Assembly (NCBI GenBank): GCA_010405405.1
Contig: MU004230.1
Coordinates: 3,506,627-3,570,626 of the forward strand
Direction of reading: 5' to 3'
From: Microthyrium microscopicum
Taxonomy: Eukaryota
Length of the DNA: 64,000 nucleotides
The position numbers and the translations under genes were made by a program. Shown here piece by piece: positions 33,344-60,388 of this stretch. Positions within the stretch are counted from its first letter, which is position 1; every line of letters begins with the position of its first letter. The notes beneath the pieces were generated by a model. It was not told where the DNA came from. It searched no databases and was given only the letters and a program-made list of their open reading frames with translations.

Positions 33344-35452
33344 ATGATGTACACTCCTTTGCGATTGTGGTTGCTTCTTGCGACCATTGAAAGTGTCGCA
33401 TTATGTGCCCCTTCACCACAGCAAGAACCAAGTCCGCTAGACCTGCCACCATCAAAACCATATCAAAGTGTCTTGCCATCGCTAAAATCCCATCCTCCTA
33501 AAGTATCGAATGGCACATCTTCTGGTCACTCCGCGCCTGCTGCGCCGCCGAAATCCAGCAGTGTTTCCTCGGCCAAAACCTCGCCAACGGGCTCCAGCGC
33601 CGCGATTCCTTACCGCAACACGACTTCGACGGGCATAATATCTTCTGCGACAGCTAGCCCGAAAGCTTCTATGGCGCCACCTTTCAAAGTGCCAGACAAT
33701 TTCCCTGGAAACGATGAGTGGTACCGGCCGCCAGCGGGCTTCGGAAAGGAAAAGACAGGGGCATTGTTGAAATATAGAAAGACCCCAAAAGCAATATCTT
33801 TGGACAACAAAAGTGCTTTGAAGATGAAGGAAGCATGGCAATTGATGTACAGGACCCAAAACACAGTTGGGGAGCCCGAATCATCTGTTGTGACGGTTTT
33901 GGTCCCGTACAATGCTACGAGGAGCAACGTCTTTGCATACCACTGGTTCTCTGTAAGTGATGGAATATGGAATCAAAGATCGAGAAGTAGCTAACATTAC
34001 CAGGATTCTACTTACCAAGAGTACGACACAATCTCAACTATTTTCTATCAATTGCTAACTTCATTTTAGCTGCAGTCCATCTCTAGGAATGCAGGTTGGA
34101 ACTCGGACTGACAATACTTATACCCAGAAGCAAACTGGTATTCTAGTTTCCGCTCTGGCTCAAGGTTGGCATGTGGTCGTACCAGATGATGGCGGACCAC
34201 ACGCCATTTTCGGTGAGCTTCAATTAGAAAGTGCACGATAAGCATCACTAACTAAGACCAAGGTAACTCGAAGTATCTGGGCTATTCTATTCTCGACAGC
34301 TTGAAGGTAGTCGTCAATTCAACAGAGATTGTAGGCTTAGATCCAGATCCCATTGTCACAACATATGGATATTCAGGCGGAGCGATGTCCGGAACCTTTG
34401 TATGTCCTGAATCGCATAAATTGTTGAGATCGTATCCTAACATGAGTAGGCCATGGAAATGCAGCCTACTTATGCGCCAGATCTTAAAATCGCCGGAGCA
34501 GCACTTGGTGGATTGCTTCCAAACATGACTTTCGTAATGAGTATGTGTCACGATTTTATTCATGATTTAGGCTTACCATTCACAGCGCATATGCATTATG
34601 TGGCAAATCGATCTGCCTATGGACCTCCATTGATAGCTGGATTCGCAAAAGAATACGCCAACTTGACCAACTGGCTTGACGAGAACTTGGCACCAGAACA
34701 CGCAGAAGAGTTCCGTAAGGTGTATACGCAATGCTACGATGCAAACTGGGATCTGTTCAGCAAACGTCCTACAACTGAATACTTGAAGCGAGGAATAGAT
34801 TCATTAGAAGATGCCATTCCAGTTAGCGTGTTTAACAACTCTGGTAAGCCTATACGACAACTTGATGATGTGCCAATGGTCTAACTCTTTCCAGGAAACT
34901 TGGGACAAAATGGAAGCCCAAAAGTCCCTCTGTATATATATGAGGTGTGTATCATCTGTCTTGCGCCAAATCAGAATTTCACTAATAGTCTACAGACTGT
35001 TGGAGACGATGCCTCTCCTGTGAACTTCACAGATGCTATTATCACGAAATATTGCAAGGAAGGAGCAAACATTGAAGTGAGTTCGTCGTGACAATTCGTA
35101 TAGATTTACTGATGAACTGGTAGTACGAACGAAATCCGATTCGTATAACCCACAGCGAAGAAATGGTCGCCGGTATGTTCTTGCAATTTTTATTCTTTAG
35201 CATGATCCTCGTATCATACACCTGATACTGACTTCCGCAGGCTTACCTGGAGCAATGAGATGGTTACAGGATCGACATGAAGGCAAAGATATAGTCACTG
35301 GTTGCCGGAACTCAACCGAGACTACATTCTCGAAAGATGCCAAAAAGCAAGGTCATTTGGTCACTGGTATTCTAGGTACGCTTTTCGCCTACTTTGGATT
35401 CACCATCGGACCAGATTATTGGATAGCGCCTTTCACAATGTTCTGGCCTTAA
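33344..35452 (+). CDS. Secretory lipase (Candida LIP / CAL-A-like family), about 10 exons
   Basis: Signal peptide and Ser/Pro-rich linker, then DEWYRPP, AWQLMYRT, SVVTVLVP, DSTYQDCSPS, GWHVVVPDDGGP, nucleophile GYSGG, MQPTYAPDL..GAALGG, VGDD and TH. Nine GT-AG introns identified by eye. Confidence 0.9.
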
Positions 35453-36534
35453 TAGAGCTGCGTCACTCGTAAATCTTCTTTGGAGTAAGGCCCAAGGGAG
35501 ATGTTTAATATTTAAGCTATCAAAAATGTTACATATTTTGCTCCAATATCCTTCTTCGCTGGTCGGTAGAAGAACATACTGTCCTCAGTCATGAAAATAA
35601 GAAAGATGAGATGCTAATCGTCTTTGTTCAAACTGAACATTAGGTCCGCGGCATTGTCAGGTGCTTTGATTTGGAGAAATAGCCATAGATACACGGGGAC
35701 AAGATGCCCTCACACATTGTCCATTTGTGTTTTGAGACGTGAGTTACGCTGCAGCAAAGCTTTAGCCAGATGGCTTCTGGACAAGATTTTTGCGTTGCGA
35801 AACCAGACCATGTCAAAGGAGCCTCTTCTTTTCAATCCAATGGAGGTGTATTGTCGGCGCTCAAGGTGACGGGAGCTTAGCCTTCGCGACCGAGCTGGCG
35901 GAAGCTTATCATGGCAGCTCATAATCAGGCGTAACTAGTTCTAAGTGTTACGCGCTCTCCCAAGTTTCCTTAGAGAACATGTATTGAGGCTTTTGAGCTA
36001 GTTCGGGGAACTAGTCTTAAGGTAGACGATTGCGATCGAATGAATTCAAGGCCAAGATCTCGAGGGATGGAGGCTGTTGAGGGTGGGGATTTCGTGCCTT
36101 TCTTTCTGTTTTATGTTCGTTAGAAGTGACTTGATGTCTAGGAAACCCGGTTTGGTTGCCGGAGCAGCCTCCTGTTACATGTGTAATTACCGTGCGTCGA
36201 GGTTAACTACATGTGCGCAGTAAAAGTAAGGGTAAATTATCACTCAACAAGGAAATTACAAGATGGGGGGTCTTCGCTCACAGAACGAGCAGGTTGTACC
36301 CATGTGTTGTTCACGATAGTAGGAATTTCTTAGCTTAGGATTTCCACCGTGCCTTGGTGTCCATGAGGTGCCATTTTACGCGTTTCTCGTGGGTTGGTTC
36401 CATTGGCTCCTTGCAGTACCTCCAATCTCAACTAGTACAGAAAATATTGTAGTATATATATGAATTTGCAGCGTTCGTCGAGCAACGACATAAGGCGCTT
36501 TGGCGGTGTGGTTAACGCGATGCCCTGCTACCAC

Positions 36535-37935
36535 GTTAGTAGCGTAACTCACGGCGCAGGGACCAGGTAGCCCCTTTTTAGCTATCACCAACAATAATTA
36601 TATTCTCTTCAAACCATAATTACTTAACCAAAATAGGTCGTAATAATCCTAAAAGACAAGAATATAATACTCCTCAAAAAGCTTGTTTTATTAAAGCTTT
36701 AAAAAATAAAGAAAACTTCCCTTCTTTTAATATTCTTTACAAATCTAAAGGAATTAATATCTCTATAGTAATAGGTCGCTATTAGGCCTTAGAATTCAAA
36801 GAATAAGGAGATATTACCTATTAAAAGATAAGGAAATAATCTACAAAGCTAGAAGTATCTAAACAAGTCTATAATAAAGAGCTACAAGCTATTCTAAATC
36901 CCTTATACCCCCTTTATTAAATACTGTTTAAATCTATGCCTTTTAGCCTTTTAAAAAGATAACTTTAGAAGCGATTTTAAGCAATTAGAGCCTATAGGTA
37001 TAAATAACGAACTACAAAGAAGATCTCTAAGAAGAATAAGCTTCTTCGTATTACTTATAGTAAACAACATAAAGGCAAAACGATAACTAGCTTCTAGAAG
37101 AACATTTACTTTATAGATAAAGTATATTTTAACTCTCTTAACTTAGCAAACTATTAGGATTATAAGATATTAAAGCTAAGCTATCCTAAGGATTAATTAC
37201 TACCTTAAGAACTTAACTAATCCTCTTTAAATATAACTCTTTACGTTATAAAGGGGATATTCTATAGAAGGAAGGGATTTTTTAGCTTTTATAATAATTC
37301 TACTAAATTAACTACCCTAAAGCCTTAAGTACTACTAAAACTATAATAAAGGAAGGTAGAAATAAAAGAATAGTTTAAATAACGATATTTAGATTACAAA
37401 GTAAGGAAACTACCTAAAGTTAAGGTAAAGCTAAAGGATAATTTAATAATATAGAAATTCTATATTAATAAGATCCTACTAAAGTATATTAAAGAAATAA
37501 AGGCCCTTAAAAAGAAGTATAACTATAAAATCTAGTTTTAAAAGGATAATAATCTAAGTTATAAAATAAGATCTAAAAAGAATATAGTAATTACTTATAA
37601 AATATAGGTAGAATTCTAGATTATTACTTATCCTACTTAATTACTAGATTTCAATCCTATAGAAGTAGTTTAGAATATTATAAAGGATAGATTACGTAGT
37701 AGAAGCTTCTTAAACGTAGAGGAATTTAAAATAGCAATTAAGGCTAAATAGCAACGAGTAACTATTATAGAAATTTAGCGACGAATTACTAAGATGCCTC
37801 AAAGGTACATTAATATAATAGAACAACACAGAGAACGTTTAAAGTCTTCGTTGTGGTGATAATCGATTTTATGTAGAATATAATATATTGATTTTTGATG
37901 TTGTGGCCCCTGCGCCGTCAATTACGACACCTACT
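36535..37935 (+). mobile_element. RIP-inactivated Tc1/IS630-family DNA transposon (~1.4 kb)
   Basis: Imperfect TIRs: CGTAACTCACGGCGCAGGGACCA (36543-) versus TGGCCCCTGCGCCGTCAATTACG (-37926). The AT-rich, TpA-rich interior keeps transposase relics YFIDK (FTDE), F*KDNNLSY (FQEDNDPSH) and LDFNPIEVV*NIIK (SPDFNPIE..W). Ends uncertain by about 5 bp. Confidence 0.88.
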
Positions 37936-37966
37936 ATGCTACTTTAAGCTAGGCATTTCCTTCGGG

Positions 37967-38013
37967 GTATGTTTGGATACATTAATGATGTGTGGTCGAT
38001 CTAACTTTAATAG
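37967..38013 (+). other. 47-nt spliceosomal-type intron inside the tRNA variable arm
   Basis: GTATGT donor at 37967, CTAAC branch motif at 38001-38005, TAG acceptor at 38011-38013. Exact removal restores the tRNA variable arm. Confidence 0.8.
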
Positions 38014-38057
38014 AGCGCAGGTTCGAATCCTGCAGGCGTCGGAAATAAATATTAAGG

Positions 38058-38066
38058 TTTTTTTTT
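38058..38066 (+). terminator. RNA polymerase III terminator (T9)
   Basis: Run of nine T, 17 nt after the tRNA 3' end. Confidence 0.75.
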
Positions 38067-38660
38067 AAATCTCTTTTTTCTTCTCCTCTCTTTCCCCATC
38101 GTTCTAACCTTTGCAACTCGTCTAATTAAGAGAGATAGCTCTAGGGATGGTCTAAATTCAGCTCGTTTTCGTTGCGTGATAGACGTTTTATCTTGTCCTC
38201 GCTGTCACCAGTCACAGCGCCACAGCGATGGCCGAGTCTTTTATCATCCAGCGTAGCAAATTTCTCCACGTCGTAGTCATAAAAGATTGACCTGCAGCTC
38301 TTCTACTCGCAAGAGCAATGGGGCGTCCTCTGTCACTGTCGTTCGAGCCGGTCAGCAAACGCTCTGATGAGCCGCGGTCGCCGACACCGTCGACACGCGT
38401 CGAGCTGGCTTGCTGCGGATGGGCAAGATATGATACTCAACATTTCTCGGTTAGCTCGGACTTCATCTCCATTTGCTGGACCTATCAACTAATCCTTTAG
38501 TTATCAATATGCCACTATCCGAAGGTGAAAGCTCCTATGTATCCCCAACCTCACACCGACTTCACTTGGATTTGATCTGACTATAAATGGGAAATGTTAT
38601 TTCTATTGCTTCAGGCTCTTTGTCCTAATAATTCTCATGTATGGGTACGAGTCCGTCGGC

Positions 38661-39779
38661 CTAATTTTTCTTATTATACGTTTTAGCTCTTAAGTTCCAC
38701 AGCTTTTGACTTACTGAGTTTGGTTGAGTATGACGTTGACTTGTAGATGGTCCTGACCGACTTGGAGGTAATCCTGACCAAACATTGAGAACATCACTAA
38801 TCTCTACAAAAACTTCTCGCCTGACAAATTCAATATGCTTGCTGCTGGTGGCTCTGCCGTTAGAATCGTCATTGGCTTCTGATATATGCGCCTCGCCAAC
38901 TGTGCGAGCCGCTCTTGCAGCCTTGCCATCGTCACTGACATCGTACAGGCTGTCAAAGTCATCAGGACCATTATCTCTTTTTTGAACAGAGATAGCGTTT
39001 GTCTTTACTTCAAGCTGCCCTAAATTGACAGCGTTGAGCTGCTTCGAAGTTTTTGTCTTCGCCTGCTCTACCTTAGCGGTATGATATTCCATCAACGCTA
39101 CTCGTCGGCCTTCCAAGAACTGTATTACACGCTCTAGTATGCTCCAATTGGGCACTTCCTTGTCTACTGCTCTGAAATAGGCCAGTATCGGATCCCAATT
39201 CTTCATCAAATAGACGTGCCAGCGTACAGCAGCGATAAACTTGAGAGTATCATAAACAGAGCCACAAGTATCAATAGTTTCCTGAACTCTACGCTGGACG
39301 CCCCGTATAAACTTTTTATCCTTATCGTTAGGACAAAAGTCTTGGAGCATTTGCCCGAGATGTTTGCTAATGGTTGGGAGAGGATCGTTCGCAAGCCAGA
39401 GTAAGGTGAAAGCATCAAGCGCTAAATCCAGCTGCCTGATCTCGGCATGTATGTCCTCCAGGTAGGTCGGAGTTGTTGTTTCTGGCATGAGAGGAAGAGG
39501 ACTATCTGCTGTCGAGCCCATGGTCATGTTTACAGCGGCACGCCATATTCCACATGAGAGATTCATGTTCTCTTTAAGGATGTCAAATGCTTCTTGATCT
39601 AAGCCATTGAAGCCTTCATACGACTGATAGATCTTGCCGATCACCCATCCCTCAGTGTGTCTGTCCCTGGAACGGCGCTCTCCTGGCAATTTGTAGGCCA
39701 TTGTCAAAGGTTTTGAATCCGCCTTGCGGAAGTAAGCCTTTATTGCATTGCTCATAGCAGCGCCACCTTGGCTGCCCAT
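38661..39779 (-). CDS. Hypothetical protein (372 aa, intronless), no recognised family
   Basis: 1.1-kb open frame starting at ATG, with a helical-looking core and a low-complexity tail. Confidence 0.6.
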   Translation of the reverse strand: MGSQGGAAMSNAIKAYFRKADSKPLTMAYKLPGERRSRDRHTEGWVIGKIYQSYEGFNGLDQEAFDILKENMNLSCGIWRAAVNMTMGSTADSPLPLMPETTTPTYLEDIHAEIRQLDLALDAFTLLWLANDPLPTISKHLGQMLQDFCPNDKDKKFIRGVQRRVQETIDTCGSVYDTLKFIAAVRWHVYLMKNWDPILAYFRAVDKEVPNWSILERVIQFLEGRRVALMEYHTAKVEQAKTKTSKQLNAVNLGQLEVKTNAISVQKRDNGPDDFDSLYDVSDDGKAARAARTVGEAHISEANDDSNGRATSSKHIEFVRREVFVEISDVLNVWSGLPPSRSGPSTSQRHTQPNSVSQKLWNLRAKTYNKKN

Positions 39780-40532
39780 ATGAACAGTTGTCGTAGTTAC
39801 TGTTTTTCTTTTATTGGCTGAGGGTTTACCACAAATCAGTGGATTTTTGGAAACTTTGGGTTAAATGCTACATGATTATATGTAGGATGGATTCGCGCGG
39901 TCCTACAATGCCTTTAATGGTAAGACGCAAAATAATCTTATTGTTCTTTTCGAGGAACCACAAAGAAAGTCTTTCGTATAATCAACAAAGAGTTTCTTTG
40001 ATCCTACATATCATTGTTATCATCTACAAAGCACAAGGATCAAGATCAAATTGCTAAAAAGATGGTATTCACCCAATTGAATCGAAGAATCGTGCAGTGA
40101 GGCGGAAGGTTTACTAACAGGTTCTTGCTGTCTGGGTGTGGTTACAGTGCTTGTTGGCCTAGTTACCTTCAAAGAGAGGAATGGACATGCATTATACCAG
40201 CAGTTTGTAAGGCAGAGAACTAGAGTAGGCGCAACGCTGTGCCAACATGACACGGATGTTAAACCAAGGTAAAGAATAGGTTGTAAAGATTGCATTTTGC
40301 TATGCTCCTCGCATGCCATGTCCAAAGAAATTAGAGAATAGTTTATATATCGACCAGACGTATACACACAAGTAAAACCCTTTAAAGATGAGAGTTTACA
40401 TAACCTTAATGCATCATCGCCTCCCAATGCAGCTCTGTGCAGTCACAAAAGAAAATTCAAACTCGTTCCTTGGACCTCCTGGCCTTGGCCTTCAAATGCA
40501 ACAGTTATTTGTCCAAGAGGAGGAAAATGGGC

Positions 40533-43500
40533 TCAGGCCCATTGATTTCTCGGAGGCACATATGTCGCGTCGTTGTTGTTCGCTGGTGGTGAGATTTGAC
40601 CAGCCGACTGTCCTCTGAATGCCGAGACTGGCGCCATACGCTCCATGGCATGCACATGTGATGGGCCGTACATTCGAAGATCGCGCTTCTTCATGGCCTC
40701 TACAGTCTGCATGGGTAGCATTTGACCGCCATACATAGAACTGCCCGTTTGATCGATAGGAGATAGGCCCTCAGAAATAGGGGGACTGGCTAGGGGTAAT
40801 CCCTGCGGATTTTGGTTGACGATAGGTCCGTATGGGCCCATACCGCCATGCTGTGGTGGACGTGGTTGGCCAAGGGGAAGTTGCTGAGGTCCGGGACCAA
40901 AGTTTTGAGGTGGCGGTCCACCATATTGTCCGCCTGGAGGAAGCACAGGTGGTGAGACTGGGTTTGCATTAATTGTATTAGGATACCCGCCTTGGCCTTG
41001 GTGGATTGGAGGTGGAGGAGGACCCATTTGCCCATGTGGTAGCAATTGAGGAGCATACGGTCCACCAAGGTTGCTACCATAAGCGGGCTCCATTCTTTTG
41101 GATGGAGACCCTTGCCTTAATGGCGATCCGCTACGAATTTCGCTGTGGATCGAGTTTGCTGTACTCGGACGCGAACCTTCGAGTGGTGGCCCAGCTGCAG
41201 CTCCAATAGGCATTCTCGATATGTTAGACGAACTGCCGGTAGGAGGTGGCATTACTGGTCGCAGAGCTGCCCCCTCTGGAATTGATGCTTGCGTTTGCTG
41301 GAAGTAGGACGACGGAGTGGTTGCGCTTCCTGGACTAGCCGCTTGGTCGATAAAAGGTGAGGCTGGGATGGTAGCAAGGCGTGGAGGTGGATATCTACTC
41401 TTCTGTTGAGGAGAAGATGAATATTGATTCTGCATCATAACCCGTGATTGACCATCATCTTGACTGCCCCAGCTTGATCTCTGATTGGGATATTGCCCAT
41501 GTTGCCCTTGCTGGCCTTGCTGTTGCAGTGGCGGTCCAAATCGATTCGGCGACTGGTGCCTTGGCTGCTGTCTTCCAGAGGAAATGTCTTCCAATTGCGA
41601 CAAGGTAGCTTGATCCAAATTCGCTTGACCTGGGCGAAGATTCTGACGCTGTGATGGCCTCTCGCCTGGCCCATGGGCCATTGCTGGTGGCGCGGCGACG
41701 GGTTGTGGAGGTGGTGATCTTTGAGTTAGTGCTTGCACCTCTGGGGGAATATTTCTCTCAGGTGTTCTTTCTCCTGACTCTTTACTACTATCAGAAGCAG
41801 TTTCGAATTTATCAAGCCCGTCTGGAGCACCCATTCCAGGGACGAAATTAGCCTGTTGATGTAGAGGTGGAGCGGGTGGCGACTCTACTTCTTCATAACC
41901 TGGAGTAAATCTTCCTTGCTGATTAGGGGCATTGCGATTATATCCAAGCGCCTCCGAATGTGATCTTCTATGTGACAAAGCTCCAGGTAGCGGCTTAATT
42001 GGCGACATGTTATTTCGATTGATGTTTTCTGGTCCATTCGGCGTGCTGCGTCCAGATGCTGACTCGTCAAATCGCAATCTGTTAGATCGAGTTGGTGGTA
42101 GACTGGTTCTACTGCCGTTCGCTCGTCCGTTGCTCATGATGCTATCCCGATCACCTCCTTCTGCAACCACCATCATACGTTTCGCGGTCAAATCTTTCAG
42201 CTCTTTACGCCATTCTCGTTCACCCCAATTTCCACTCCCTTCGGTATTGACAAGTCCTGCTACGTCTAGTGTCTCTAGATAGCCATAATGCCGATCCTTG
42301 GGCATTGCAAACATGAGGCCTCTAGCATCTCTAACATCTGCGATGAGCCGATTAGGCCGACCATAGATGGCAAATGTATCCCAAACAGGGAACAAAAATT
42401 TCAGCATCATTTCGAATCCAGATATTGCCGGGTGAGTCTCAGGCATGACGAATACAGATCCTTCGGTCGACGACCCGCCCGACTTGTCATGTACTGTGAT
42501 GTTACCTTCAATTTTGACTAGTGTTGACTGCTCAATGAGTGGTTTCGAAGCGGGATATATTGCGTATGCGGAATATGCATCGGTAATTGTCGCGATAGGT
42601 CGAGTCTTTTTTCCGATTTTTTTGGTTTCGTAGAATTTGAGGTCACCCCGGAGGACTGGCGCTTTTTCGTAAGGACCTCGTTTCTTCATGGACTTTTGAA
42701 GCTTTTCGTATTCCTTTTGATCCGGAGGACTGATCACGAACCAGCATTTGCGCCAAGGTGTTCCGGCTCCAAATCTGACCCTCGCCCAATCCTCATACTT
42801 GAATCTTGATCTTTCCATGATCATTCTGATGTTGTTAAGGTTCTTGCCCTTTCCAGCTATCAAAGATCCAGTATACGCTTCTTGAAGAGTGGTGTTCTCG
42901 TAAATAGCGAGCCGTATTGCCGATGCCCATTGCGTCATGGAGGCGAATGTGCTAAAGTGGAATAGGTATCGATTGTTCCCAGCCGTGGAGACACTGAGTA
43001 CGTTTTGTAGAGGTCTACCTCCGTTCTCGTTCATGGGTAAAGATTCAAGCTAGAAATGTTAGAGGAGTCCACGAGGATCAAGATCAAACCTACCATTTTG
43101 ATTGAAGCGTCGGCTATGTTTATGAAAGCTGGCTTGACTTCTCCACCATCACCCACAGCATCTAGCTCGGCAGCATCCCAGACAGACATTACAGTTCCTA
43201 CTAGTTGAGCAAAACATTCTGTCCAGTTACGATCAGAGCTTGGCCGTCCACCTGCACAAGTTAGATATGCCTTTCAGAGCGCATAGAAGCCAAGACTCAC
43301 GCGGATCCAAGTCATGTAATTTGAGAAAATAGCCTTCTTGATATAATTTGTTGGAATGGCTGTTGAGGTAGGTGAAGATGGGCAAAAGCTCGGGCAGGGT
43401 ATCTTGAGCCACATCCATCAGTGGCGGTTGGAACGTCTGGACCATTGAAGATGGGCGGGAGCCGGTCCGCGAAGAAGTTCGTCTGCGGGGTTGAGGTGAA

Positions 43501-44904: not shown

Positions 44905-47900
44905 ACTATCTTATAGATAATAAAGGTTAAGATATAATCTTAACCTTATATATAAATAAACCTTTTACTAATAGATTTCCTACTACTTAATTTCCTCTTT
45001 GTTAGTTATAGTAGACTTACTACCTTTAGTTTCCTTACTTTTTCCTTTAGTGCCTTTACTCTCCTCTTTATTATCCTCTAGTATATTATCTAAAAATAGT
45101 TCCTATTTAGGTTAGATAGTTAATAATAAGTTATATTCCTCTTTAGGCTATTCCTTTTTATAAAGAATCTTATATATCTTTATATATATTAAACGTAGCA
45201 TTAGGTAATAAGTACCTATATTTAGGTCTTTAACTTTATTTCGTTATAAAGTAGGTAAGGGCTATAGTAGGCTATAAGTAGTTAGTAGCGTAGTATTAGA
45301 AGATATTATTAGCTCTAAGGATAAGAAGCCTATTTAATTATATTCTTACTATATTAGATAATATATAAACTAAAGACTATAAAGCTATATGTCTTCTTAT
45401 TAAATTATATTATTATAGACCTATTATATAGATAGATTTTGCTACCTAACTTCGTTAAGTAGTTATTTAGCTTCTAAATTATTAGGGTGTCTATATTCTT
45501 TAAGATTATTATAATCCCTATATTAATTATTTATTATGACTTTCTCTATAATAAAGTTATTAATTAAAGTAGATATTTTAACTAGTGCTTTCTTAGGTAT
45601 AATATTATCCTCTTAGGGCACTATTATTAATTAAGGCATACTATTTAATAGTTTACTATAGTACTTAGTTTCTTTAGGTAGTTTATTAGTATAGAATTTA
45701 AATTAATTATTATAGTTACTATCCTTCTTGTTATTATCTATCTAGTTACTACTAGAGTTAATATTTATATAATCTTATAGCTATAGTAGATAATTACTAT
45801 TATATTACTATTTATTTTTATATTTACTTATAGGTAGAGTAAGTTAAACTAATAGGTTGTTAAGGAAGTAGTCTAGTAGTAAATAATCTAAGTGCTCTAT
45901 TATATAGTCTATAAGTTTATTACGTTATTATTAAATAGTATTATTTTCTTATAGTAAGGCCTTAACGTACTATTAAACTTACTTATTACGTTCTATTGTC
46001 TACTTTTAGACTTATTCTAGTATTAAGTTTTAATTAAACTTAGTTATAGCTACCTTATTAGCTATGCCTATTAGCTATTTCTAAGTATCTCTAAGATAGT
46101 CTAGTCTTAAGTCCTAGTATATAACTTTCTTATTTTTAATAATAAATATTATATTTTACTAATACTAAAGTAGATTATTATACATAACGTTAATAGGGTT
46201 AAAGCTTCTTAGTCTAGGGTAAGTAAATATATTCTAGACTACCTATCTTAAGAGAGTAGCTATAAATTTATTCTTAGCGTTATAGAATAGCTTTATAATC
46301 TTTCTATATTAAGTAAAGTACCTAGTATTATTTAGTAGTACTAGTAATTTACTAATAAAATCTAGATTCTTCTCCTTATATATAAGTTCTTAGATTATTC
46401 TATTACTTACATAGACCTTATAGAATTTTAGTAATAGTCTAATTAGCTCTAGGCGTCTTATATACGCCTAAAGAGGCCTACTAATTATAATTTAACTTTA
46501 TTATAAAAAATAGTAATATCCTTAATTCTTATAAACTAATTAACCTTTTGCTATCTTATAGTTATATTAAAGTTAAACTTAGGTTCTTGCCTAGGTTAGA
46601 TACTTAATAAAGATATTTAGCTTCTAAAGGCTTATCTTGCCTTTACTCTTTTTTAATATATAGTGTTATATAATTATTTTAATAGTAGCTATAATTTTTA
46701 GGAAAGGCTTTAGTTATAGAGGATATTTTATTACTAGTAGAATTCCTAAGTCTATCTTAAGATATTTAATTTCTAGATTAGGTTTATAAAGCTATATTTA
46801 TAGGATTTTACTATCTATATGATTCTATAGCTATTCTTTTAGTATATAGTACTTATCTCTATCCTAATCTAGGCTATGTACTATCTTTAGTTTTGTCTTT
46901 TTCTTTAGCTCATTTTCTAGTTATTCTTATTATATTTAGGCATCTTTAAGGGCCTATATAGTAGTATATATATTTTCTATTAAGAAGTTTAGTAATAAAC
47001 TTAGTCCTGCTTTTATATTAGATAAGCTTAGAGAGATTAGATTTTTATTAATTTGCTCTACTCTCTAATATAATAGAGAGGCTCTACTTTCTATCTTTTT
47101 CTATAAAAAAGGTTATATAAAGGATAGTAATATTAGATTATTAATCCTAATTAGTAGATTTTGGAATATAGTAATAGTTTCTAGCCTAGAAGTAACCTTA
47201 TCTTCTTTACTAGTAGCTATTAAGTTAAATTAAACTTATTTAGCTACTAGTTTGACTAGTAATCTATTTGCCTAAACTTAGACTTTTTACTTATCTATAG
47301 TAATAGAAGATTCTATAATAGTTATATAGGAATTAGCTATATCTTAATATAATTAGGGTTATTTAATCCTCCTTAAATTTGCTACTTTACTTTAGGGTAT
47401 TAAAATATCTAGCTCTTCCTTATTCTTCTTACGTACTTATACCTATAAGACGTATTCTACCTATTAGAGGGAGTTATTATTATCTTTAAACTCTAAGTTA
47501 TCTTTTGCATTAACTTATTAGTATAATAGTAGACTATACTAGGCGTTAAGCATCTTAAGTTAGTAATTAGAAGAAATTACGTCTTCTATATAAAGCTAAG
47601 TATAATAAGTAGCTTTTCTTGTGTCGTTTAAAATATATAGAAACTTACGTATATTAGCTTGCTACTAATTAAAAATAGTTTTAATATTAGTTTAATCTAT
47701 ATATTTTTATTCTTAGAGTTTAATAGAATCTAAGTTATATATAACTATATACTTTCGTACCTAACCTTAGTAGACTAGAAACGTAAATATTCTATGTTAG
47801 ATAAGAACTCTTAAACGTAGGTTAAGGCGCTCTTATACCTTATTTAATTCATCTACTAGATCTTAAGTATTCTACTTTTCCTTATCTATTGCCCTAAGAA

Positions 47901-50900
47901 TAGCTAGTCTTTACTAGATCTTTTCCTTAAGATAGTTTACTACCTTCTCTAGCTTCTACTTATTATTAAGTTTTGCTACCTACTTATTATAATTTAGCTA
48001 GTTATATTTTAGAATATTTAGTTCTTTCTCTTGCTAAGCTTAATTGCTCGCATTTATTTCTTTTACTAACTAATACTCTTCTCTATATTCTCTAATTAGA
48101 TTTAGGTAGGAGTTAGTTATTAAGAAATACTTTTTAGTCTATATATATTATACTAAATATAAATAAGTTAAGTTAGCTACCTTTTGCGCTTTATATATAG
48201 AATTATAGTAATTATTTTATAATTATTTATTATTTGTACTTAGTTTAATAAATAAGCTCTCTAGGAAGTCTCTTAAGAGATCCTTTAGCTAAAGTACTAT
48301 ATTAGTTTTTAGCGTAAGTTATTATTGCTTAGTAGTATCTACTAGATCTACTATTTTTAATAGTAATGTTAAAATCTATTAATATATCTTTATATAGTAT
48401 TTATCCTTATAATCTTAGAATATCTTATTATAAAGTATAGTATAAAGGAAATAGAGTAATTTAATTTAAAGAAGTAGGGTATGTGCTAGTAGGTAAATAA
48501 TTTATCTCTTTCTTAATTAAATATTAGTACCTACTTAGAGAGGTTACGCTTAGATCCTTAGATCTTTAAAGCTAAATATTTTGTTAACTCTTTACTAGCC
48601 TTCTTAGGAGGTAATTATAACTTTTAAAATTAGAAGCTCCTAATTACGTTTAAATACATAGAAGTAGTGACTTTATTTCCTATAGTAAGAGATCTAAAGC
48701 TAGCTCCTAGGTTATTAAATTCTTAAAGGTTTACGTTATTAAGTTAGACTTTTATTTGCTCGCTAGTATTGATTATATTCCCTTATAAGTATATTGTTAA
48801 AATCTAGCTTCCTTAATTTAGTATATTTAAATTCCTATTATATAACTCTAAAGAAAAAGCTATTATTAAATAGATAGAGGTATAGAGTATTAGAATTTTA
48901 TAGCTAAGCTATTCTATAGATAATAAAGGTTATTATTAGGTCTCTAAGATAGTATAGGGAGTTAACTTTATTCTTTAGGTTCTATAGGGTCCTATATATA
49001 TTTTGCTTAGTTAGAAATAGTATATTTAAAGGCATAGTAGCGCCTAAATTAGCTATATAGCTTTTCTTAAGAAAATATATTACTATAGCTCTTCTTAAGA
49101 ATCTTTACTGCTACGTTTAGCTAAACTATAGATATTAAATAGTATCCTAGCTAATTATAAATCTATTAATATTTGTAATATAAAGGTACTATGTTTAAAC
49201 TAATAGAAGCATAGGGTTATTTATATACTTCTTAGAATATTATATTTAGAATATCTTCCTCTACTAGGAGTATAGAGATATTTGCATACCTTTTAGAATA
49301 TTATACTTAGAATATCTTCCTCTACTATAGAAATATAATCTCCTCTACTAGGGTGTTATTAAACTAATAGTAGTACTTCTAGTTATTTTAGACGTATCTA
49401 GTCTTATAGAAGAATGCTTTATCTTAAGTTACGTTATAGAAGATCTATTAATCTTTTACTTTCTCTATAAGTCTTTATAAAGTATTTATATCATTTCATC
49501 CCTAGGTTCTATCTTTACTAGGTACTTTATAGCCCTATTATTAAATAGATAGGCGTAGTTTATTATATTTTCTAAGTACTTAGGATTTATTCTATCTTAG
49601 TATACGTTAGAGTATATTTAAACTTATAGTAAATATATATATAGCATTTTTGCGTTTCTATAAGGAGTAGTATTATAGAATAAATACTCCTTTATATAAT
49701 ACTTAGTATCGTCTTAGCTATCTATCTAGAGAGTAATATTCTAAATTATATATTATAAAAGAAAAGTATTATATTTTAGTATTTATCGTAGTGTATTTAA
49801 ACTAATAGTAGTAGTTTAACTCCCTATAGTCTAGAAATTTCTTAATAATCTATTAAAGTAGAAAACAGCTTACTAGCCTTATTATTAAATAGATAGGTGT
49901 AGGCAATTTACTAGGCTAGGATTTTCTTTTAACTAGTTTTCTAGTCTAGTTATCGTATAATTTAAATCTTTCTATAGAATAGGAGTAATAGTTTAATAAT
50001 AGATATATATTTTGCTAGTTAGCTACCCTTACTAGTAACTTACTTATTATAGTTCTTACTTAGCTTACGCCTTAGGAGCTAAATATATCTAATAGCTCAT
50101 TATATAGAAATACTAATCCCATTTTACGAACCTTCTTACTTACCCTATTTAAATTTAGCTTATAATAATACTAATATTCTAGGTTATTATCCTTCTTATT
50201 ATTTAGGCTAGATTGTTTAGATCTTTATGGCTACTCTTATCTTTATTTAGGAACTTCCTTATCTTTAAGCTCTTTAAACTCTAGTAGCTACTCTTATTTT
50301 AATACGTTCTACTAAATAGGTATATTGCTTTGTAATCCCTTTATTTATTCTTCTAGATCTTCTAGAATCTAAGGAAATTCCCCCTTTTTTAGATAGATCT
50401 TTAGATTATCTAAGTATTATCGTATATCTTTATAAGTTTAACCTAGGAAGATTCCTTTTATTATAACTATCTAGCTATTATCGTTAAGAGACTCTACTAT
50501 ATAGGGCCTAGCTTATCGTAGCTAAAAGGCTTAGCTTCTTTATTTATCTAGATAGACTTCCCTTATAAGCACTAGATTTCTTAGCTTTATATTATTATTA
50601 CTTACTAGAAGGTTTTTGCTAAAGTGTTATATTACTTTAGTAGAGCGATTTTCTATAGTGTGCTCTCTAATTTTATCTAGCTAGGCTAGCCTTATTATCT
50701 AATTTACTTAAGCTACTATATTAAGCCTTAATGAGTTAACTTCTTCTTATAAACCTAGGTCTATTACTAATTGCCTAAGTTCCTTATTAACTATAAAGTC
50801 CTATGTTCTTTAAGGTTAAAATTTGTATAATAGTATTTTAGATATATATTCTTCTACTTTTAATAGTCTGCCTACTAGTATTTTAAACTACTAGTTTACT

Positions 50901-53900
50901 ACTTTATACTAGTACTTTAGCTATTTAGGATAATTAAGGATATATTTAACTATTTCTACTTTAACTATATAGACTAGCTTTTTAATAAAACTAGTAAAAG
51001 AAGGATAATATAGTAAACTAAAGAATATCTTTATTGCGTTAAGCTTAAGCTTATTTATAAACTTTCTATTCTAGAATTAGGCACTATTATCTAAGAAAGT
51101 AGTTAGTAGATATCTAGCTTATAAAAGAACTTTTTTATAGAATACTTTTTAGATATAAATACCTTTACATCTTAGTATAGCTTTACTAGTAGGGAATTAT
51201 ATAGCATAGTTCTAAAAGACTATAACGTATCTATTCCCTTTTTTTAATATTAAGGAAATTAGACCTAGTAAGTTAAAAGAAATATAGTCTTAAGGTTATA
51301 GCTATAAAATTAAGGTTAAATTCCTAATATGCTACTTAAGTCTAGATAGTTAATAAGTAAGATATTTCTAAGTATATTACTAAATATCCTAAATTCATAA
51401 GGGCTAATAATATCTTTTAATAATAGACTAGAGAGTTTTGTTTACTACCTAATATCTATATATATTATAAGTTTTTCTAAGTACTATATAGAGCTAATTA
51501 CTAAGAATGTAATAAGCTAGCTCTCTATTTCTTTTATAGTAAGCTAAGTAAGGCTTAGGTTCCTAGATAAGTTAAAAATACTTTACTTAACGCGCTAGCT
51601 TTTATTAGACTTATTTAAGTATATTTTTACTTATTCTTAAAGTTTATTACATTTATCTAGTTAGGAGAAAGAAAACCTTCTTCTTATACTAGGGATCTAT
51701 TAGCTAGTTATCCTAAGACTTAAAATCTTTATTTATCTTCTCCTAAAGATCCTTACTTTCTAGTTCTTAAGGATATAAATATTTAGAAAGAGTTCTAGAT
51801 TTATTAGCAACTATATTAACTTTAAAGGCTTTATATATTTTAGTATTATATAGGGCTAGATTACTACTAACTTAAGATAATCTATCTATAATAGCGATAT
51901 TCTTCTTAGGGATATATATAATTTTTAGATTATACTTAAGTAGTTATTACTTTTAGGAAGCAATTTAGGCTATGCTAATTGTATCTTCTTAAATAATTTA
52001 AATAATAGTAAAGTAGTTAGTATAGGTTATTACTAGAAATTAGGTACTAATAAAGAGCTAACTTAAATATTCTACTGCTTTTAATAAGGCTAGTACCTCT
52101 CTCTTTGTAGTCTTATAGTTTCTCTTAGTATTAGAGAATTGTGCTAAATAAAATAGGACTAGGGAGTATTCTTTAATAGGAACTTTATTTTCTATAACTC
52201 TTAGAGGGTAGTTAGGAAGCTAGAATAAATATTTGCTATATCTTATCTTAAATACGTTAGTACTAAGGTAGTATTGTAGATTTAGATTCCTACTTTTCCT
52301 AGTCCTTATAGTAATTATGTCTTTTACTCTCTAGAATACTTTTTATTGCTCTACTTTCTATTTAAAAGATCTAACTTCCTTTTATATCTAATACTTTTAT
52401 ATAACTAGGTCTTAGACTCTTTTTCTAATTACTATAGTAGCTCTCTTAAGGATCTAAGTTAATTCTAATCGCTTAGGAATTCTATCTTATAAAAATAGTA
52501 GTATATAATTAAATTACTTAACTTGCTCTTAGTTTATAAATATAGGATATTTTATAATTACTTTAATTTTAATATTATCTAGTTTAATCCCTTTCTAACC
52601 TATTTACATACTTAGGACGTAGATTAAAGAGTAGGTAAAAGAATATTTATTTAGGTTAAATATAAGCTTTACCTAAGCTATATAAGGGAAGTAATGTTTA
52701 TATAAAAACTTAATTATTATATCTATGTCTTCTATACCTCCTATATCGTTATCTATAAAGTTAACTATTATAGCTTTATTATAATAGTCTAGAAGTAAAG
52801 GTTCTAGGCTAAGAGCTAGTATAGAACTAAATATAAAATCTTTTAACTTTTAATAGGTCTTATAAGTATTTATTAGCCCTTATCCTATATAAGTCTAGGC
52901 TATTTAACTATATATTATATTAAAAACTATTTTATAAATATTATCTATATAGATATCTACTAACTAGTATTTGTTAGCTATATCTATCTTAAAAAATGTT
53001 TTATAGTTAGGCTTATAAAGCTTATTAAGAATAAGCTTGCTTTACCTTATTAGATAATAGCTTTTAATAGTTGCTACGTTAACTAGTTAAAAATTATAGG
53101 TCTATCTATTTATAGACTATATAAGCTTATGCTTATATTCTTTCTTAGGTACTAATTATTCTCTTATAGCCTAATTTAAAATATAGTATATTATAATTAT
53201 TACCTCTAGTAGCTTTAGAATAACTATTATTTAGTAGGCTTTATCTTTCTCTATTAGAATCTTAAGTAGTACTACTTTTGGTATAGCTTCTAAGTAAGTT
53301 AGGATATAATATATAATAAGATTTATTATCTAGATATACTTTAATAATTTAGTAAAGAGATCTCTCTAAGTATATAGTATATAGTAAAGCTTCCCTTACT
53401 ATATACTAGTTATTAGTATACTACTAATAAAGCCTAGGCTTACTTTAATCTAGGCAAAGATCTAGGCTATAACTATGCCTTTAAGCGTACTTAATATTAG
53501 GTACTAAGAATCCTTAGGCTAATAGTTAGTAGAAAATTTTAGTACTACTTATTTATATACTTTATTATATATATATACTAGTGCTAGACTAGTAGGAAGG
53601 ATTAGTTTTACCTTATTAACTTTTAATAGAGATTTATAGAGTAGGTAAAGCTCCTTATACTAATAGCGCTTTTTTAATAGATTAAGCTACTTCTCTTTCT
53701 CTTAATATAAGATCTCCTTTAAGATTATAGTTTTGTCTTTTACTACTATATTAATAGATCTAGACTTTTTTCTACTAATTACTTCGTTAAGGTAATATTT
53801 CTATATTCTTTGTAGCATATTACTAAGATATAGAGGTTTTAGCTATTTAATTTACTATTTTGGTCCTATTCTTATTATATTCTTAGCTATAGGGTCTACT

Positions 53901-56900
53901 ACTATATCTACTAGTAGTGCTTTTACTCTTTATAATTTAGTTATATTAACTATTAACTAATATTTATCTAGTAAGGATTTTACTAGAAGTTTATTAAGTA
54001 GTTAGTATAGTAGGATCTACTTTATTATAGTAAGATCTTAAGGATTTATTCTCTCTAGTACGTAAGTTAATTTATAAATAAAAGAAGCTTCTTTCTAGCT
54101 AGGCTTTTCTTCTTCTTAGGAGTAAGTCCTATCTAGTATAAAGTTAGTTACGTATAGATCTTCTAGGTCTTAGGTAAAGTCTATTTCTAAAGCTATGTTT
54201 AAACTAATAGGCGTAGTTAGATTCTTAATTTCCTTCTTATAGTCTTCTCTTTCTTTAAGTATTTTATTAGGGTCTATAATAATAGTATAGGTTAGTATAA
54301 GTAATAGGTTCTTACGTCCTAGGGCTAATTTATTTTAATATTATTAGGAGATATATAAATTAAGTAGGTTTAAACGTATAGGAGTAGCCTTCTAGGATTT
54401 ATTCTCTTTTAATACTACTTAAGTTAATCTTTATGCTAGTATTATTCTATTTTTAAGGTTAGTATCTAGTCTAAATTTAAAACTTATCTACTTTCTAAAA
54501 TTCTATAGAAAATCTTATAAGATCTAGGTTATTATTAAAGGAATAGGTATAGTTTAGCTTTCTAGATTAGTATTCTCTTTTTTACCTAAATTACGTTATA
54601 ATAATAAGTTTTAAGAAGCCTTAATTATTAAAGATTTTAAAATCTTTATATCTCTCTAATACTTTAGATAATATATGCCTATTACCTATATATAGTCCTA
54701 TACTAGTTTTTTAAGTTCTTTAGGAAGAAACTATCCCTTCCCTTATAAGTTCTTTAAGCTAAGCTATATAGTTTAGGTAGCCTTAAGTATAAGATATTTT
54801 GTATTAAGGTTATTAGTTAACCTTAACGTCGTTAGTATAGTAGTATCTATTAGATCTTGCTAATCTAATAGGCTTAAATTATTTTTATAATTTATAATAG
54901 AAATGTTACTTTTATAGTTTTGTAATATTTCTAATTACTCTACTAAATCTATAGTAAGATTAAGTAAAGGAGCTTAAGTAATTAGATCCTTTTGCTAAGT
55001 AGATTTTTCCTTAGCTTTTAGAAATAGTATATTTAAACTAATAATAGTAGAGATTTGCCTATTTTATATATTTAACTTTTTCTTTGCTAAAGAAAAGATT
55101 AGAATTTATAACTAATCCCTTATTCTTCTTTTTCCTAATTCTTTAAGCGATAGAGAGAGTATATTTAAACTATTAGCAATAGGTTCTAAGTAATATCTAT
55201 ATAAGAATGCTTATCTAATAGATAGATACTACATATTATTTAGTCCTAGTATAAAGAGTTCCTAGTATGCTAAATTCTATAAAGGATTAGATATACTTAA
55301 ACTTATAGGCAACGCCTCTAGTAGGTCTATATAGAGCTAATCTTCTAGTATATATATAAGGTCTTAATAAGGATTTTGTAATAAGTCTTTATTTAACTCT
55401 TTTATAAGTATATCTTTTTTGGCTACGTTTAAAGGGATAAGAGCACTCTTAGGCCTAAAATTAACGCTACTAAATTCTACTTTATAAAGAGGTTCTCTAG
55501 TAACTAACTATATATAGCTTTCCTTTACTAGTTATTTATCCTAATTATAGAGGATGACTATTAGCTAGTTAATACTTAAGCTTTTTAGAAGCTTTGTAGT
55601 TAAATATATTATAGGCAACTTTTCCTATTACTTTATATGCTATGACTTTCTTTCTCCTTATCTATCTAGGTATACTCTAAGCTATACTAAAGACTTCTTT
55701 TTAGATAATAACTTACCTATATTTAAATATATTCTCTTAATTAGGCTTATTCTATTTAGTATACTTAAATATATAGATAATAAATATTATTATAATTAGG
55801 CTCCCTAGCTAAGTAAAAAGTCTAAGGAGATTTATACTAAATAACTAGGAATCTCTTATATTACTAAATTATTAGGGTAGTAAGCTTAAGTTATTATAGA
55901 GGAAGAAAATAAGTATAAGTAGTAGTTATATAAATTTATTAAATATTCTTAGTATACTACTTCTAGATAAGACTTATAATTATATATTTCTTTATAGTTA
56001 ATATTGTTAAGGTTAATATAATCTTTAGAACTAGTCTTTTGCTTAATTTCCTCTTCTCTTCTAGACTTAAGACTACTAATGCTTATATACTTTATAATTA
56101 TGCTATATATCGTACCTATAGTAAAAGTATATTTTATAAATAAAGTACATATATAAGGCCTTATATATTTAGATATACTAGTAGTCTTTAGAGTATCTAT
56201 TAGTAAAGTGCTTTTAAAGGCTATTAAATAACCTTTATTAGTATATCTTAAGTTAACTTTAGAGCGCTAATTAATAGTGCCTTTATAGCTTTATAATTCT
56301 CTTTGCCTAAGTTTTAGATTAGGACTTATTAATAAACTTTATTTATAACTCTTATTAGTTCCTTATTATCTACTAAGTAAGCGTAATATTTAGCATCTAA
56401 GGCTAGGCTAATCTATTAAACTACTAATAAAAATTATAGGAAGACTTTCTCTACTAATTTATAAATTAAGAAGACAAGTTTGTCTACCTAAGGAAGTAAA
56501 TCTCCTAAGGTAACCTATATTTTAGGCTCTTTTCTCTTTGTCTTATTATAATAATAAAAATCTAGGGTAACTTAATAATTCTTCTTATTAACTACTATAG
56601 GAAGCCTATACTTACTCTACTTTAGTATATCTATACTTTTAGACTAATAGAAACTTAAAAGAATACTATAGCGAACTATTTTTAGGATAAGATAGTATTA
56701 GACGCTATAAATAGTACTACTAATATTAAGAATAATCTTTACTCTTATATTTAGAGTAGATTAAGAGCTACTAGCAAAAGTAACGTATATTAGCTTAAAC
56801 TCTTACTTCTTAAGACCTATCTTCTTAGCTATATAAATATTAATAAGGTTTATAGTAGAGCCTTTATTTAGAAAAACTTTATATAAAATATATTCTTTTC

Positions 56901-59900
56901 TAGCTAGTGTAGTAATATGTACCTAAGTATAGAAGATATATCTTAATACGTTAGTATCTAGGACTAAATAATTATGCAAAGTATTCTTAGTAATAGCCTT
57001 TATTAATTACTTATTAGTATTTATAAAGTTTGCTCTATATACTATATTTAAAGTATCTATCTAATCTTTTTTTACTATTAGTATATAATAATTAGTATTA
57101 GCTAGGGTTACTTATAAGAAAGTTAGGCTTTAAATATACCCCTTAGTAGTAGGAATTACCTTCTTAGGCTAGGCATTATATATTACTATTTACTCCTTTA
57201 TTTAAGCTTTATTTTCTTATTAGATCTTGTCTTTATAAGACTAAGTTGTAAGAGAGATTACCTTATCTTACTATAATGCTATACCTAGCTATTAAGTAAG
57301 GTAAAGAGAGCAATTTATAATATCTCCTACTATAATGCTATCTTTTAGGCTAATAAGACGCCTAAGTAAGATCTTAGTAATATCTATAGGGCCCTTCCTC
57401 TCTATTTCTTTAAGGGGTTAAAATTTTAGAATCTTAGTACCTTTAAGGAACTTAAAATTATTATCTATATCTAGGTCTTAATTATCTAGTTAGGCCTAGG
57501 TTTTATAAGGGCGTAGATTTTTATCCTTATTATTATTAATATTATGTTAAGTACATTTAATTATATTAGCTAAAGTAGTATTTTTAAATTCTATACCTTC
57601 TAGCTATAAAGTTAACTTACTAGCTTTATCCTTACTCTAGCCTAGACTAAAAGTATTTATACTATTAACGTACTTATGCTAGGTAGGCTTTTCTTAATCT
57701 TTATTATTAATATTATAGAATCTATCTCTAATCTTAGGTCTCTAAACGCTAGGGTAATGATCTTTAATAACCTTATTTACTTCTTACTATAATACTTATA
57801 CTACTACTATTATTAGAGGATTTATAAGAGTAGGATAGTTTAGAGGAGGTTACTACTATTAGCTATTAAGTTGTTCTCCTTAATAGCAAGTTAGATAGTT
57901 ACTCCTTTTTATACCTAGTACGCTATAACTAAAGTAAGTTAATAGTTAGCGTTTACTAGTACTATAAGAATTATAATAATCTAATTAGTTTTAATTATCT
58001 AGATAGTTATAAGTATTACTAGAAGGTCTTAGCTAGCTAACTCCTTATAGCGTAGGTAAAGCTAATATTAGAGGATTTAGATCTCTCTAGTACTATTATC
58101 TATTATTAGCTAGCTATATAGGGTAGCTTCTAAGTCCTTACTAGAAATAGATTAGTTAATACTATTACTAAAGCTATATATATCTCTACTAGCCTTCTAT
58201 CTAGTTAGGCTAGCTACTTTAGTTATATAGAGGCTAAGAATTATCTATTTAGGTATTCTAGTTGTTTTAAGAACGATTTTGTTTTAGCTATAGTTATAAA
58301 GCTAAAGTTAGTGTTATTACTACTTATCTTAATAAGTTAGCTAGATCTTAAATTTATAAGTTAGTACGTAATTAGTCTTTAGCCTTAACTTTTCTAGGTA
58401 GGTAAGCCTTATTAAAGACGTAAGTAATAAACTCTATAGCTTTCTTAAAGGTAATATTATAGTACTTTACCTAGTTAGAGTAATGGTTAACTATAGTTAT
58501 CTCTTTATAGTTATAAACTATATTAGAATAAATATTTTAGTTATATAACTTCTTAATAATACAAGAGAGATTATAAAACTTATTAATATAATTATTAATA
58601 GGTATAGCTTCTTTAACTATAGTCTTAGCCTTCTCTAAGGTATTAGAGATTAGCGTTTGATTTTATTTATTTATCTTAATAGTTAAGATTTGTATAAAGT
58701 TATTATATATATAGCCTTAAGTAATATTATATACTTAGTTTTATTCCTAGATAGGTAAGGCAAGGTTAGTAACTATAAGGCCTTTAGTAACTTTGTCTTC
58801 TAAGTCTTTAATCTCTTTATTAGAACCTTAATTAAAACTATTATTATAAAGTAAGATTTTAGCTAATTAATAATAACTACTAGCATAAGTCTAAATATCT
58901 TAGTTATAGAGGCTATTAAATTTATTAATTAGGGTAGATCTAGTAAATAAATAGATTAAAGAATCTAGATTACTATACTAGCTTATAGCATAGGTGCTAC
59001 CTTAATCTCCTATAATAGAAGAAGTAGTAAGAAATTGTTTATTAAATTTGCTATCTAAAATAGATAATATAGGTAATTGTTTCCTTTTCCTAAAAGAAGA
59101 AACTAAAGGAGATCTTTTAGGAAACGCTAGTACTTTAACTTTAGCTAGTAGGCTAAAGTTCTACTTAGAATAGTATAAAGCGTACTATTAGTATTATTTA
59201 TAAAAGGTTCTAGAAGGGTAAGTAGCCTTAATTACTATAATGCTAGAAAATAAAAACTTAGATATATTTAGTAAAATAGATATATAAGGACCTTAGATTT
59301 TTATTAGTAATAATAATAGAATCTATAAAGGCCTTTTAGGCGTAGTTACTAAGAGATTAACGTCTAGTAGAGCTAATAATGCTCTCTTTTAAATAGGAGT
59401 ACTAGGTTAGAGAAGTAATAAATCTTGTTAATAGTTTTTAAACTATAGTTAATAACTTTAATCTAGGCTAAATAACTCTTCCTCTTTATTTATTCCTATA
59501 CTACTTAAAACAACGAGCTAGCTATAGTAGTAATAAGAAGTAAGAAGTTTCTTAGGGCTAACTTTAAAAAGTAAAGTAGTATAGTATTAAATTAAATTAA
59601 TAAGCGTAGGGGTAATGTGTATAAAAGTATAATAAATAGAGGTAATAAAGATTAAGAGAAGAAGAAGTCCTTAAGGCCTTCTAATCTTAGCCTAGTAGTT
59701 ATAAAGTAAAAGCATAGGCTAGTAAATAATCTAACCTAAAGAAGTCTTATTTATAAGATGCTCTTAATAAGGAAGTTATAATAGTAGGCCTAAATTATAA
59801 AATAATAGCTTAGTAATTAAACTTGCGCAAATTTAAAAATCTTGCCTACTAGTAATTTAATTATAGCGTTATCTATAAGTTTAATAGTAACTTTATTCTA

Positions 59901-60388
59901 GCTAGGAAGTTAACTATAATATTAAAAATTAGACTACTTATAATAAATAACTAGCGCATAGCTATATATCCTTACTATACGTAGAAACTATTATTTTGCG
60001 TAGTAAGAACTACTCTAAAAGTATATAGTTAAACTAATAGCAATAGAGGTACTAATATTTTACTAGCTTAGTTGCTTTTTACTTTCTTATTATATTTTAA
60101 TAGTCGCTATATTCCTTATAGATAATTACTATCTATTAATTTAAATTTAATGCTTTAGGTATACCTAATAGTTTAATAATACCTATAGCTATTTATTATT
60201 TTATATTAGCCGCTATAAGCGCGCTAAATCGTCTAGAATTACTTTTTATTAGCCTATAGCTAGTATTTGTTTTATATTAATTCGTCGTTTATCTAATAGC
60301 TTATTCGTCATTAGAGCTCATTATTTATTATCTAATTATATTACTTAATTACGTAAGGTTTAGGAAGTTTATAGTTTAGCTCCTAATT

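Follow-up and report, generated by a model that had tools for sequence, protein, structure and literature searches.

A GT-AG insert at a conserved position in the variable stem of fungal tRNA-Ser(GCU) genes, probably a spliceosomal-type intron

The tRNA-Ser(GCT) locus and its transposon

The whole stretch of DNA analysed here, referred to as the window, is 64 kb long and fungal; its genes include those for a P4-ATPase, for the mitochondrial protein L46 and for a fungal protein with a PH-like domain. Named proteins that match the P4-ATPase best come from Dothideomycetes at 75-77% identity, and its best match overall stands at 79%. These matches place the organism among the filamentous ascomycetes, close to Dothideomycetes. 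The window also contains AT-rich blocks of 23-27% GC. The 15-kb block at 45000-60500, at 23-27% GC, has sharp edges against its neighbours of 43-50% GC and is probably a nest of transposons degraded by repeat-induced point mutation.

Reading the sequence, we found a tRNA-Ser(GCT) gene of three exons at 36494-38041 on the plus strand. It is interrupted by a transposon, by a short intron at the canonical position 37/38 and by a 47-nt insert in the variable stem. The features are listed below; exon 1 was placed by mapping and by alignment with two related genes, L001 and L002, which are described further on.

36494-36530, plus strand: exon 1, tRNA positions 1-37 with the anticodon GCT; 5' strand of the acceptor stem, D arm, 5' strand of the anticodon stem, and the loop up to A37
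36526-36531, no strand assigned: left copy of the target-site duplication (TSD) TGCTAC, 6 bp, identical to the right copy
36532-37936, no strand assigned: decayed AT-rich transposon with inverted repeats, 1405 bp, recognised by its terminal inverted repeats (TIRs), TSD and contig depth
37937-37942, no strand assigned: right copy of the TSD, TGCTAC, identical to the left copy
37942-37950, plus strand: canonical 9-nt intron at 37/38, reported by ARAGORN as i(38,9)
37951-37966, plus strand: exon 2, 16 nt; position 38, 3' strand of the anticodon stem, 5' strand and loop of the variable arm, and two G of its 3' strand
37967-38013, plus strand: 47-nt spliceosomal-type insert in the 3' strand of the variable stem, with GTATGT, CTAAC and TAG
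38014-38041, plus strand: exon 3, 28 nt; last base of the variable stem, T arm, 3' strand of the acceptor stem, and discriminator G
38058-38066, plus strand: run of nine T, resembling a Pol III terminator, 17 nt past the gene

When the transposon, the 9-nt intron and the insert were all removed in silico, ARAGORN called an 81-nt tRNA-Ser(gct) cloverleaf, confirming the claim of the original prediction that removal of exactly GT..AG restores a cloverleaf of this length. With the insert removed and the 9-nt intron retained, the program returned the same Ser(gct) tRNA with a 9-nt intron at 37/38; this intron is a reconstruction, obtained with a script that takes out the transposon and one copy of the TSD by coordinates. 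With the insert retained, the window gene was miscalled as Tyr or given a bogus intron, and in the raw window ARAGORN reported no tRNA and an Rfam search returned nothing relevant. The native forms of L001 and L002 were likewise miscalled, as Gln or Thr. Such a gene had been expected to be overlooked by standard tRNA finders, and this is what these searches show. Once the insert is removed, the gene in the window, L001 and L002 all display the features of a class II tRNA-Ser, i.e. the cloverleaf, a long variable arm, the anticodon GCT and G73.

The transposon landed in the anticodon loop, or canonical intron, of the gene, and it is bracketed by the perfect 6-bp direct repeat TGCTAC. The core of its TIRs (36543-36565 and 37904-37926) is 23 nt long and 87% complementary, and GC content in the transposon region is 27% over 37001-38000. 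It is a multi-copy element, as DNA contigs from the same genome give a summed depth of 3-6 times that of the flanks and contain many copies at 80-95% identity. Runs of five T within the transposon would terminate transcription by Pol III. Position 14 of the tRNA (36507) is T in the window copy and A in both L001 and L002, and A14 is near-universal in tRNAs. An A box with A14 and an unbroken Pol III unit, the marks of an intact gene, are present in both relatives and absent from the window copy. The window copy is a pseudogene, a fossil of its gene type that was killed by the transposon. The change from A14 to T is a transversion, unlike the C-to-T changes of repeat-induced point mutation, and fits decay after inactivation.

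Further observations concern the transposon family. A 76-nt fragment at 35674-35749 resembles the left end of the transposon in reversed orientation, with an exact match of 13 nt to the inverted-repeat region, and it has matches of ~90% in contigs from elsewhere in the genome. One contig joins 35749 to 38012, i.e. a similar transposon end to the 3' part of a tRNA-Ser gene preceded by AG, and this joint also occurs in X5, a contig source described below. As a joint between the transposon and a tRNA-Ser gene exists in another contig, the family may have a preference for tRNA-Ser genes. In animals, transposons of the Dada superfamily target small-RNA genes and produce duplications of 6-7 bp.

Splice signals of the 47-nt insert

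The insert (37967-38013) opens with GTATGT and closes with TAG, and the A of its CTAAC stands 9 nt from the 3' end. There are only two delimitations that restore the same tRNA product, because the base preceding the insert is identical to its last base, and one of the two is exactly GT..AG. Across the 64 kb, the strict intron pattern GTATGT-N15-45-CTAAC-N3-20-YAG was observed 3 times against 0.54 expected, and a count of 3 was reached in 1 of 100 shuffles. The occurrence of this pattern in an insert at one fixed junction is therefore not attributable to chance.

The insert was compared with candidate introns of the neighbourhood. Ten candidates that join open reading frames (two of them with a common acceptor) are 44-82 nt long, with a median of 52 nt; their donors follow GTRNGY and their branch sites CTRAY. 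A contig that is probably RNA skips one intron of 51 nt, at 38450-38500. The likeness to local mRNA introns on which the original prediction had drawn is upheld by this comparison, with 47 nt lying within the range of 44-82 nt and with a similar donor and branch site. The accompanying remark that the insert has no run of four or more T is correct, since the longest run is 3, yet it is nothing special, as such runs occur in just 1 of the 10 local introns. The argument for Pol III read-through built on it was dropped, because 9 of the 10 local mRNA introns also lack these runs; their absence is compatible with transcription by Pol III but uninformative.

Two related genes and the selection acting on them

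Metagenome contigs were scanned with a pattern consisting of a Ser-type T arm preceded by YAG, with GTRNGT 25-55 nt upstream. The scan gave two loci and no false hits, namely L001 (JAABUP010036719.1) and L002 (JAABUV010112921.1); their sources are two metagenomes of cryptoendolithic communities in Antarctic sandstone (PMC7171226). The fungi of such communities are mainly Lecanoromycetes and Dothideomycetes, going by the title of a work cited there (reference 4 in PMC7171226). The comparison thus comprises three genes in all: the window copy, L001 and L002.

Both loci are intact tRNA-Ser(GCT) genes without the transposon, with A14 present and with intact A and B box regions, and both share an unusual D arm with the window copy. 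Each has a 10-nt intron at 37/38 and a 51-nt insert at a phosphodiester bond identical to that in the window, CGGG/GT..AG/AGCGCAGG. The signals of the insert are GTGAGT..CTAAC..CAG in L001 and GTAAGT..CTGAC..CAG in L002, with the branch A 11 nt from the 3' end in both. Runs of T7 and T6, of the terminator kind, lie 6 nt past the gene in L001 and L002, respectively, and ARAGORN called an 81-nt tRNA-Ser(gct) in both once the insert had been removed in silico. The donor and acceptor were demanded by the scan pattern, and homologues with decayed signals would escape it; what the pattern did not impose is the exact 5' boundary after CGGG, the sequence of the branch site, the intactness of the tRNA body and the outcome of the selection test described below. 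As a specificity control, an exon-1 pattern and the scan pattern itself were run against prokaryote genome contigs and viral contigs, which hold scarcely any fungal DNA, and gave 0 hits.

Around the tRNA, the L001 and L002 contigs have no recognisable protein gene and no ORF of at least 80 aa resembling a host gene. Comparison of both loci with 34000-41000 of the window by blastn and tblastx aligned the tRNA exons only. In flanks that are otherwise unalignable, an ATATA-rich, TATA-like element lies ~35-45 nt upstream of the tRNA start at all three loci (invariant alignment columns at 36455-36465 in the window, ~2166-2176 on the minus strand of L001 and ~786-796 on the minus strand of L002), and could serve as a promoter element for Pol III.

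L001 and L002 align with each other by blastn over 743 nt at 79.7% and, on this comparison, are orthologous loci of two related species. While the exons are identical at 81/81 positions, the 200-nt flanks agree at 157/207 and 158/209 positions (~76%), the 37/38 intron at 7/10 and the insert at 35/54. By our own arithmetic, the probability that 81 bases stay unchanged at a neutral identity of ~76% is ~2e-10. Identity of all 81 exon positions between flanks this divergent argues that the interrupted gene is under purifying selection in these fungi, and that its insert is drifting except at the donor, branch and acceptor. The window insert agrees with the other two at 29/55 and 30/57 positions (~53%, gapped), which is the random level, and the three signals are kept. 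Covariation is seen in the acceptor stem, where pair 4-69 differs between the window copy and L001/L002 (G-C versus A-T). What the comparison shows directly is how the gene is built, that the insert keeps its position and its signals, and that selection acts on the gene so interrupted.

All three inserts have the sequence attributes of U2-type GT-AG introns, with GTRNGT at the exact 5' end, a CTRAY branch site and YAG at the exact 3' end. Their lengths of 47, 51 and 51 nt compare with 44-82 nt for the local candidates of the window's species, and their position is conserved in 3/3 genes around a free interior. A fixed position, kept signals and a free interior are together what one would expect of an intron on which the spliceosome really acts. 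The original prediction had named, as the outcome that would speak against it, an insert confined to the dead copy with unconserved signals; the opposite was found, as L001 and L002 are intact and carry the signals. The same result bears on the idea that the 47 nt are a one-off filler, or intron-derived DNA, of no meaning in an already dead gene. That the window copy is a pseudogene would suit this idea, as would the single-copy nature of the insert within the 64-kb window, where blastn-short found no second match longer than 11 nt. A meaningless insertion is contradicted by the identical position being filled in two intact, selected genes of other fungi, and we regard this idea as hardly credible.

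Another reading accepts a working gene with an insert that is not spliceosomal: the insert would stay in the tRNA as an oversized bulge of the variable stem, or be cut out by the endonuclease or some other nuclease-ligase route. It lies between the second and third pairs of the variable stem, and a cloverleaf that holds it as a large bulge is conceivable. In archaea and some algae the endonuclease does cut ectopic tRNA introns, according to the part of PMC3978253 available. Kept GTRNGT, CTRAC and YAG signals in three genes whose inserts have otherwise changed would be expected only if the signals are read, which counts against both versions. For the endonuclease version in particular, a simple complementarity test with G-U pairs allowed found no 4-bp central helix of a bulge-helix-bulge at the cuts, over 16 offsets in 3/3 genes, so that a bulge-helix-bulge intron is an unlikely identity for the insert. 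In eukaryotes, the tRNA endonuclease finds 37/38 by its distance from the mature domain. The 47-nt insert does not lie there; it interrupts the variable stem, and a separate intron of 9-10 nt fills 37/38. We consider this second reading quite improbable.

Contigs from the genome of the window provide a paralogue and a transcript. X1 and X3 are DNA, apparently from the window's own sample, and X5 is probably RNA, which is a guess. In X1 and X3, a contig matches the window up to 36521 (tRNA position 28), continues with 34 other letters and resumes at 38013. In our reading, the 34 letters make up the anticodon arm of a Ser(AGA) gene, whose 37/38 intron is 10 nt long, and lead into the same variable arm with no insert in it. 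This paralogue would then display the pre-insertion state of the variable arm in the same genome. In X5, a spliced plus-strand transcript at a contig depth of 993 runs from at least 38013 through the intron at 38450-38500, covering tRNA exon 3 at its 5' end. Contigs of both kinds, DNA and probable RNA, all stop at 38013, because the 30 nt that follow are common to paralogous tRNA genes, and this break makes the insert junction unreadable in either its spliced or its unspliced form. Gaps in the coverage of the locus by X5 and X6 carry no weight in this analysis. No joint leading from exon 1 directly to 37943, as in a transposon-free copy, is among the contig joints listed, and contigs show presence, not absence. 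Between 38013 and 38700 the only ORF of the plus-strand transcript is one of 68 codons, which begins at 38318. The transcript is convergent with a minus-strand ORF of 399 aa (38661-39860) that belongs to no Pfam family.

A Pol II-type transcript over exon 3 leaves room for a context other than tRNA. It could be that uninterrupted gene copies supply tRNA-Ser(GCU), and that the insert is spliced, if ever, in read-through or UTR transcripts of Pol II, with the exons held identical by gene conversion. The depth of 993 of the spliced transcript covering exon 3 in the window's species is in keeping with this, and the window copy is certainly no working tRNA gene. Yet conversion tracts that keep exons 2 and 3 identical would tend to erase the insert between them, and L001 and L002 show full Pol III anatomy, with A and B boxes, T6-7 terminators 6 nt downstream and no host-like ORF of 80 aa or more. 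A weaker point is that the contig joints listed, which can attest presence only, include none from 37966 to 38014, as an uninterrupted Ser(GCT) gene would give. We judge this reading as a whole to be unlikely.

Proposed explanation and its place among known introns

The explanation that we favour, and hold to be probable, is that the insert is a conserved U2-type, spliceosomal-type intron of Pol III tRNA-Ser(GCU) genes in a lineage of filamentous ascomycetes, of which the window copy is a dead member. We infer excision of the insert, the spliceosome as its agent and Pol III as the maker of the precursor. In one such lineage, tRNA-Ser(GCU) genes would contain two unlike introns: a short one at 37/38 that would be cut by the tRNA splicing endonuclease, and a GT-AG intron of ~50 nt in the variable stem that the spliceosome would remove from a Pol III transcript, as in the U6 snRNA of fission yeast. 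The latter would go back to a single gain that predates the split between the window's species and the two Antarctic rock fungi, and would since have kept its position and splice signals only. Later, a transposon in the anticodon loop would have killed the window copy, and the change from A14 to T would have followed. Two points count against the explanation: most splicing by the spliceosome goes together with Pol II transcription, and a Pol III transcript with a 3' exon of 28 nt would be an unusual substrate for it.

Spliceosomal introns are known in genes for U6, which is transcribed by Pol III, as well as U2, U5 and U1, and in rRNA genes (PMC5855946, in the part available). [quoted passage not shown] 1993, 1996, as cited in the available part of PMC5855946). 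Like these, the insert is short and GT-AG, has a branch consensus and sits in the gene of a small stable RNA, which in the case of U6 is also a Pol III product. The introns of snRNA genes are thought to have arisen by reverse splicing, followed by reverse transcription and recombination (PMC5855946, same part). Unlike its snRNA counterparts, a tRNA is not a component of the spliceosome, so that closeness to the catalytic centre is no explanation for how the intron was acquired. The tRNA-Ser(GCT) genes also differ from snRNA genes in bearing an endonuclease-type intron as well, and splicing of the insert is here a deduction.

The spliceosomal introns in rRNA of ascomycetes, found mostly in lichen-forming hosts and at many positions, are recognised by their signals and have a variable interior. 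They reside in nuclear rRNA genes (Bhattacharya et al. 2000, as cited in the available part of PMC5855946). The insert resembles them in being spliceosomal-type, in belonging to a gene that Pol II does not transcribe, in having filamentous ascomycetes as hosts, and in its conserved signals around a variable interior; the difference is that rRNA introns occupy many positions in Pol I genes, whereas the insert occupies a single conserved position in a Pol III tRNA. Ectopic tRNA introns with a bulge-helix-bulge are known from archaea, red algae and nucleomorphs, and the variable region is a possible site for them (PMC3978253 and PMC10275265, in the parts available). Ectopic and canonical tRNA introns are, like the insert, interruptions that need removal for function. 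They are cut by the endonuclease at structural motifs and have no GT..branch..AG, while the insert has these signals, showed no bulge-helix-bulge helix in the simple test above, and is accompanied by a separate intron at 37/38. Introner-like elements have been proposed as a source of new spliceosomal introns in Dothideomycetes (PMC4457414, in the part available), the class to which the window's organism is nearest. They come in many near-identical copies per genome. The insert is old and degenerate, and a search for further copies over the 64-kb window found none.

Textbooks and reviews keep tRNA splicing, by endonuclease and ligase, apart from spliceosomal splicing. In the literature searched, which left most subscription journals and supplements outside it, no report of a tRNA with a spliceosomal intron was found. 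The available part of a 2018 review on U6 names no tRNA among RNAs with spliceosomal introns (PMC5855946), and that of a 2023 review on tRNA contrasts the two splicing systems, names the spliceosome once and lists no tRNA with a spliceosomal intron (PMC10275265).

On the comparison made here, no fewer than two fungi besides the window's have the interrupted tRNA-Ser(GCU) gene type in an intact form that is under selection, and some tRNAs probably need the spliceosome to mature. As a more tentative extension, which we put forward as a possibility, the decoder of the serine codons AGC and AGU could be made only from genes that need both endonuclease and spliceosome throughout a clade of rock-inhabiting or lichen-associated ascomycetes. 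The case is an unusually clean one of intron gain, as both the structure of the tRNA and a paralogue from this genome tell what the sequence was before the insertion. A conserved GT-AG intron of this kind would show that the spliceosome can serve Pol III tRNA precursors, and that reverse splicing, or a route akin to it, brings new introns even into RNAs that have no place in the catalytic centre of the spliceosome. It would also show that tRNA genes are under-counted or mislabelled in some fungi by standard finders, here as Gln, Thr and Tyr by ARAGORN. If the extension to a whole clade is true, this would be the first tRNA known as a substrate of the spliceosome and the second class of Pol III transcript after U6, and the translation of all AGY codons would depend on spliceosome activity.
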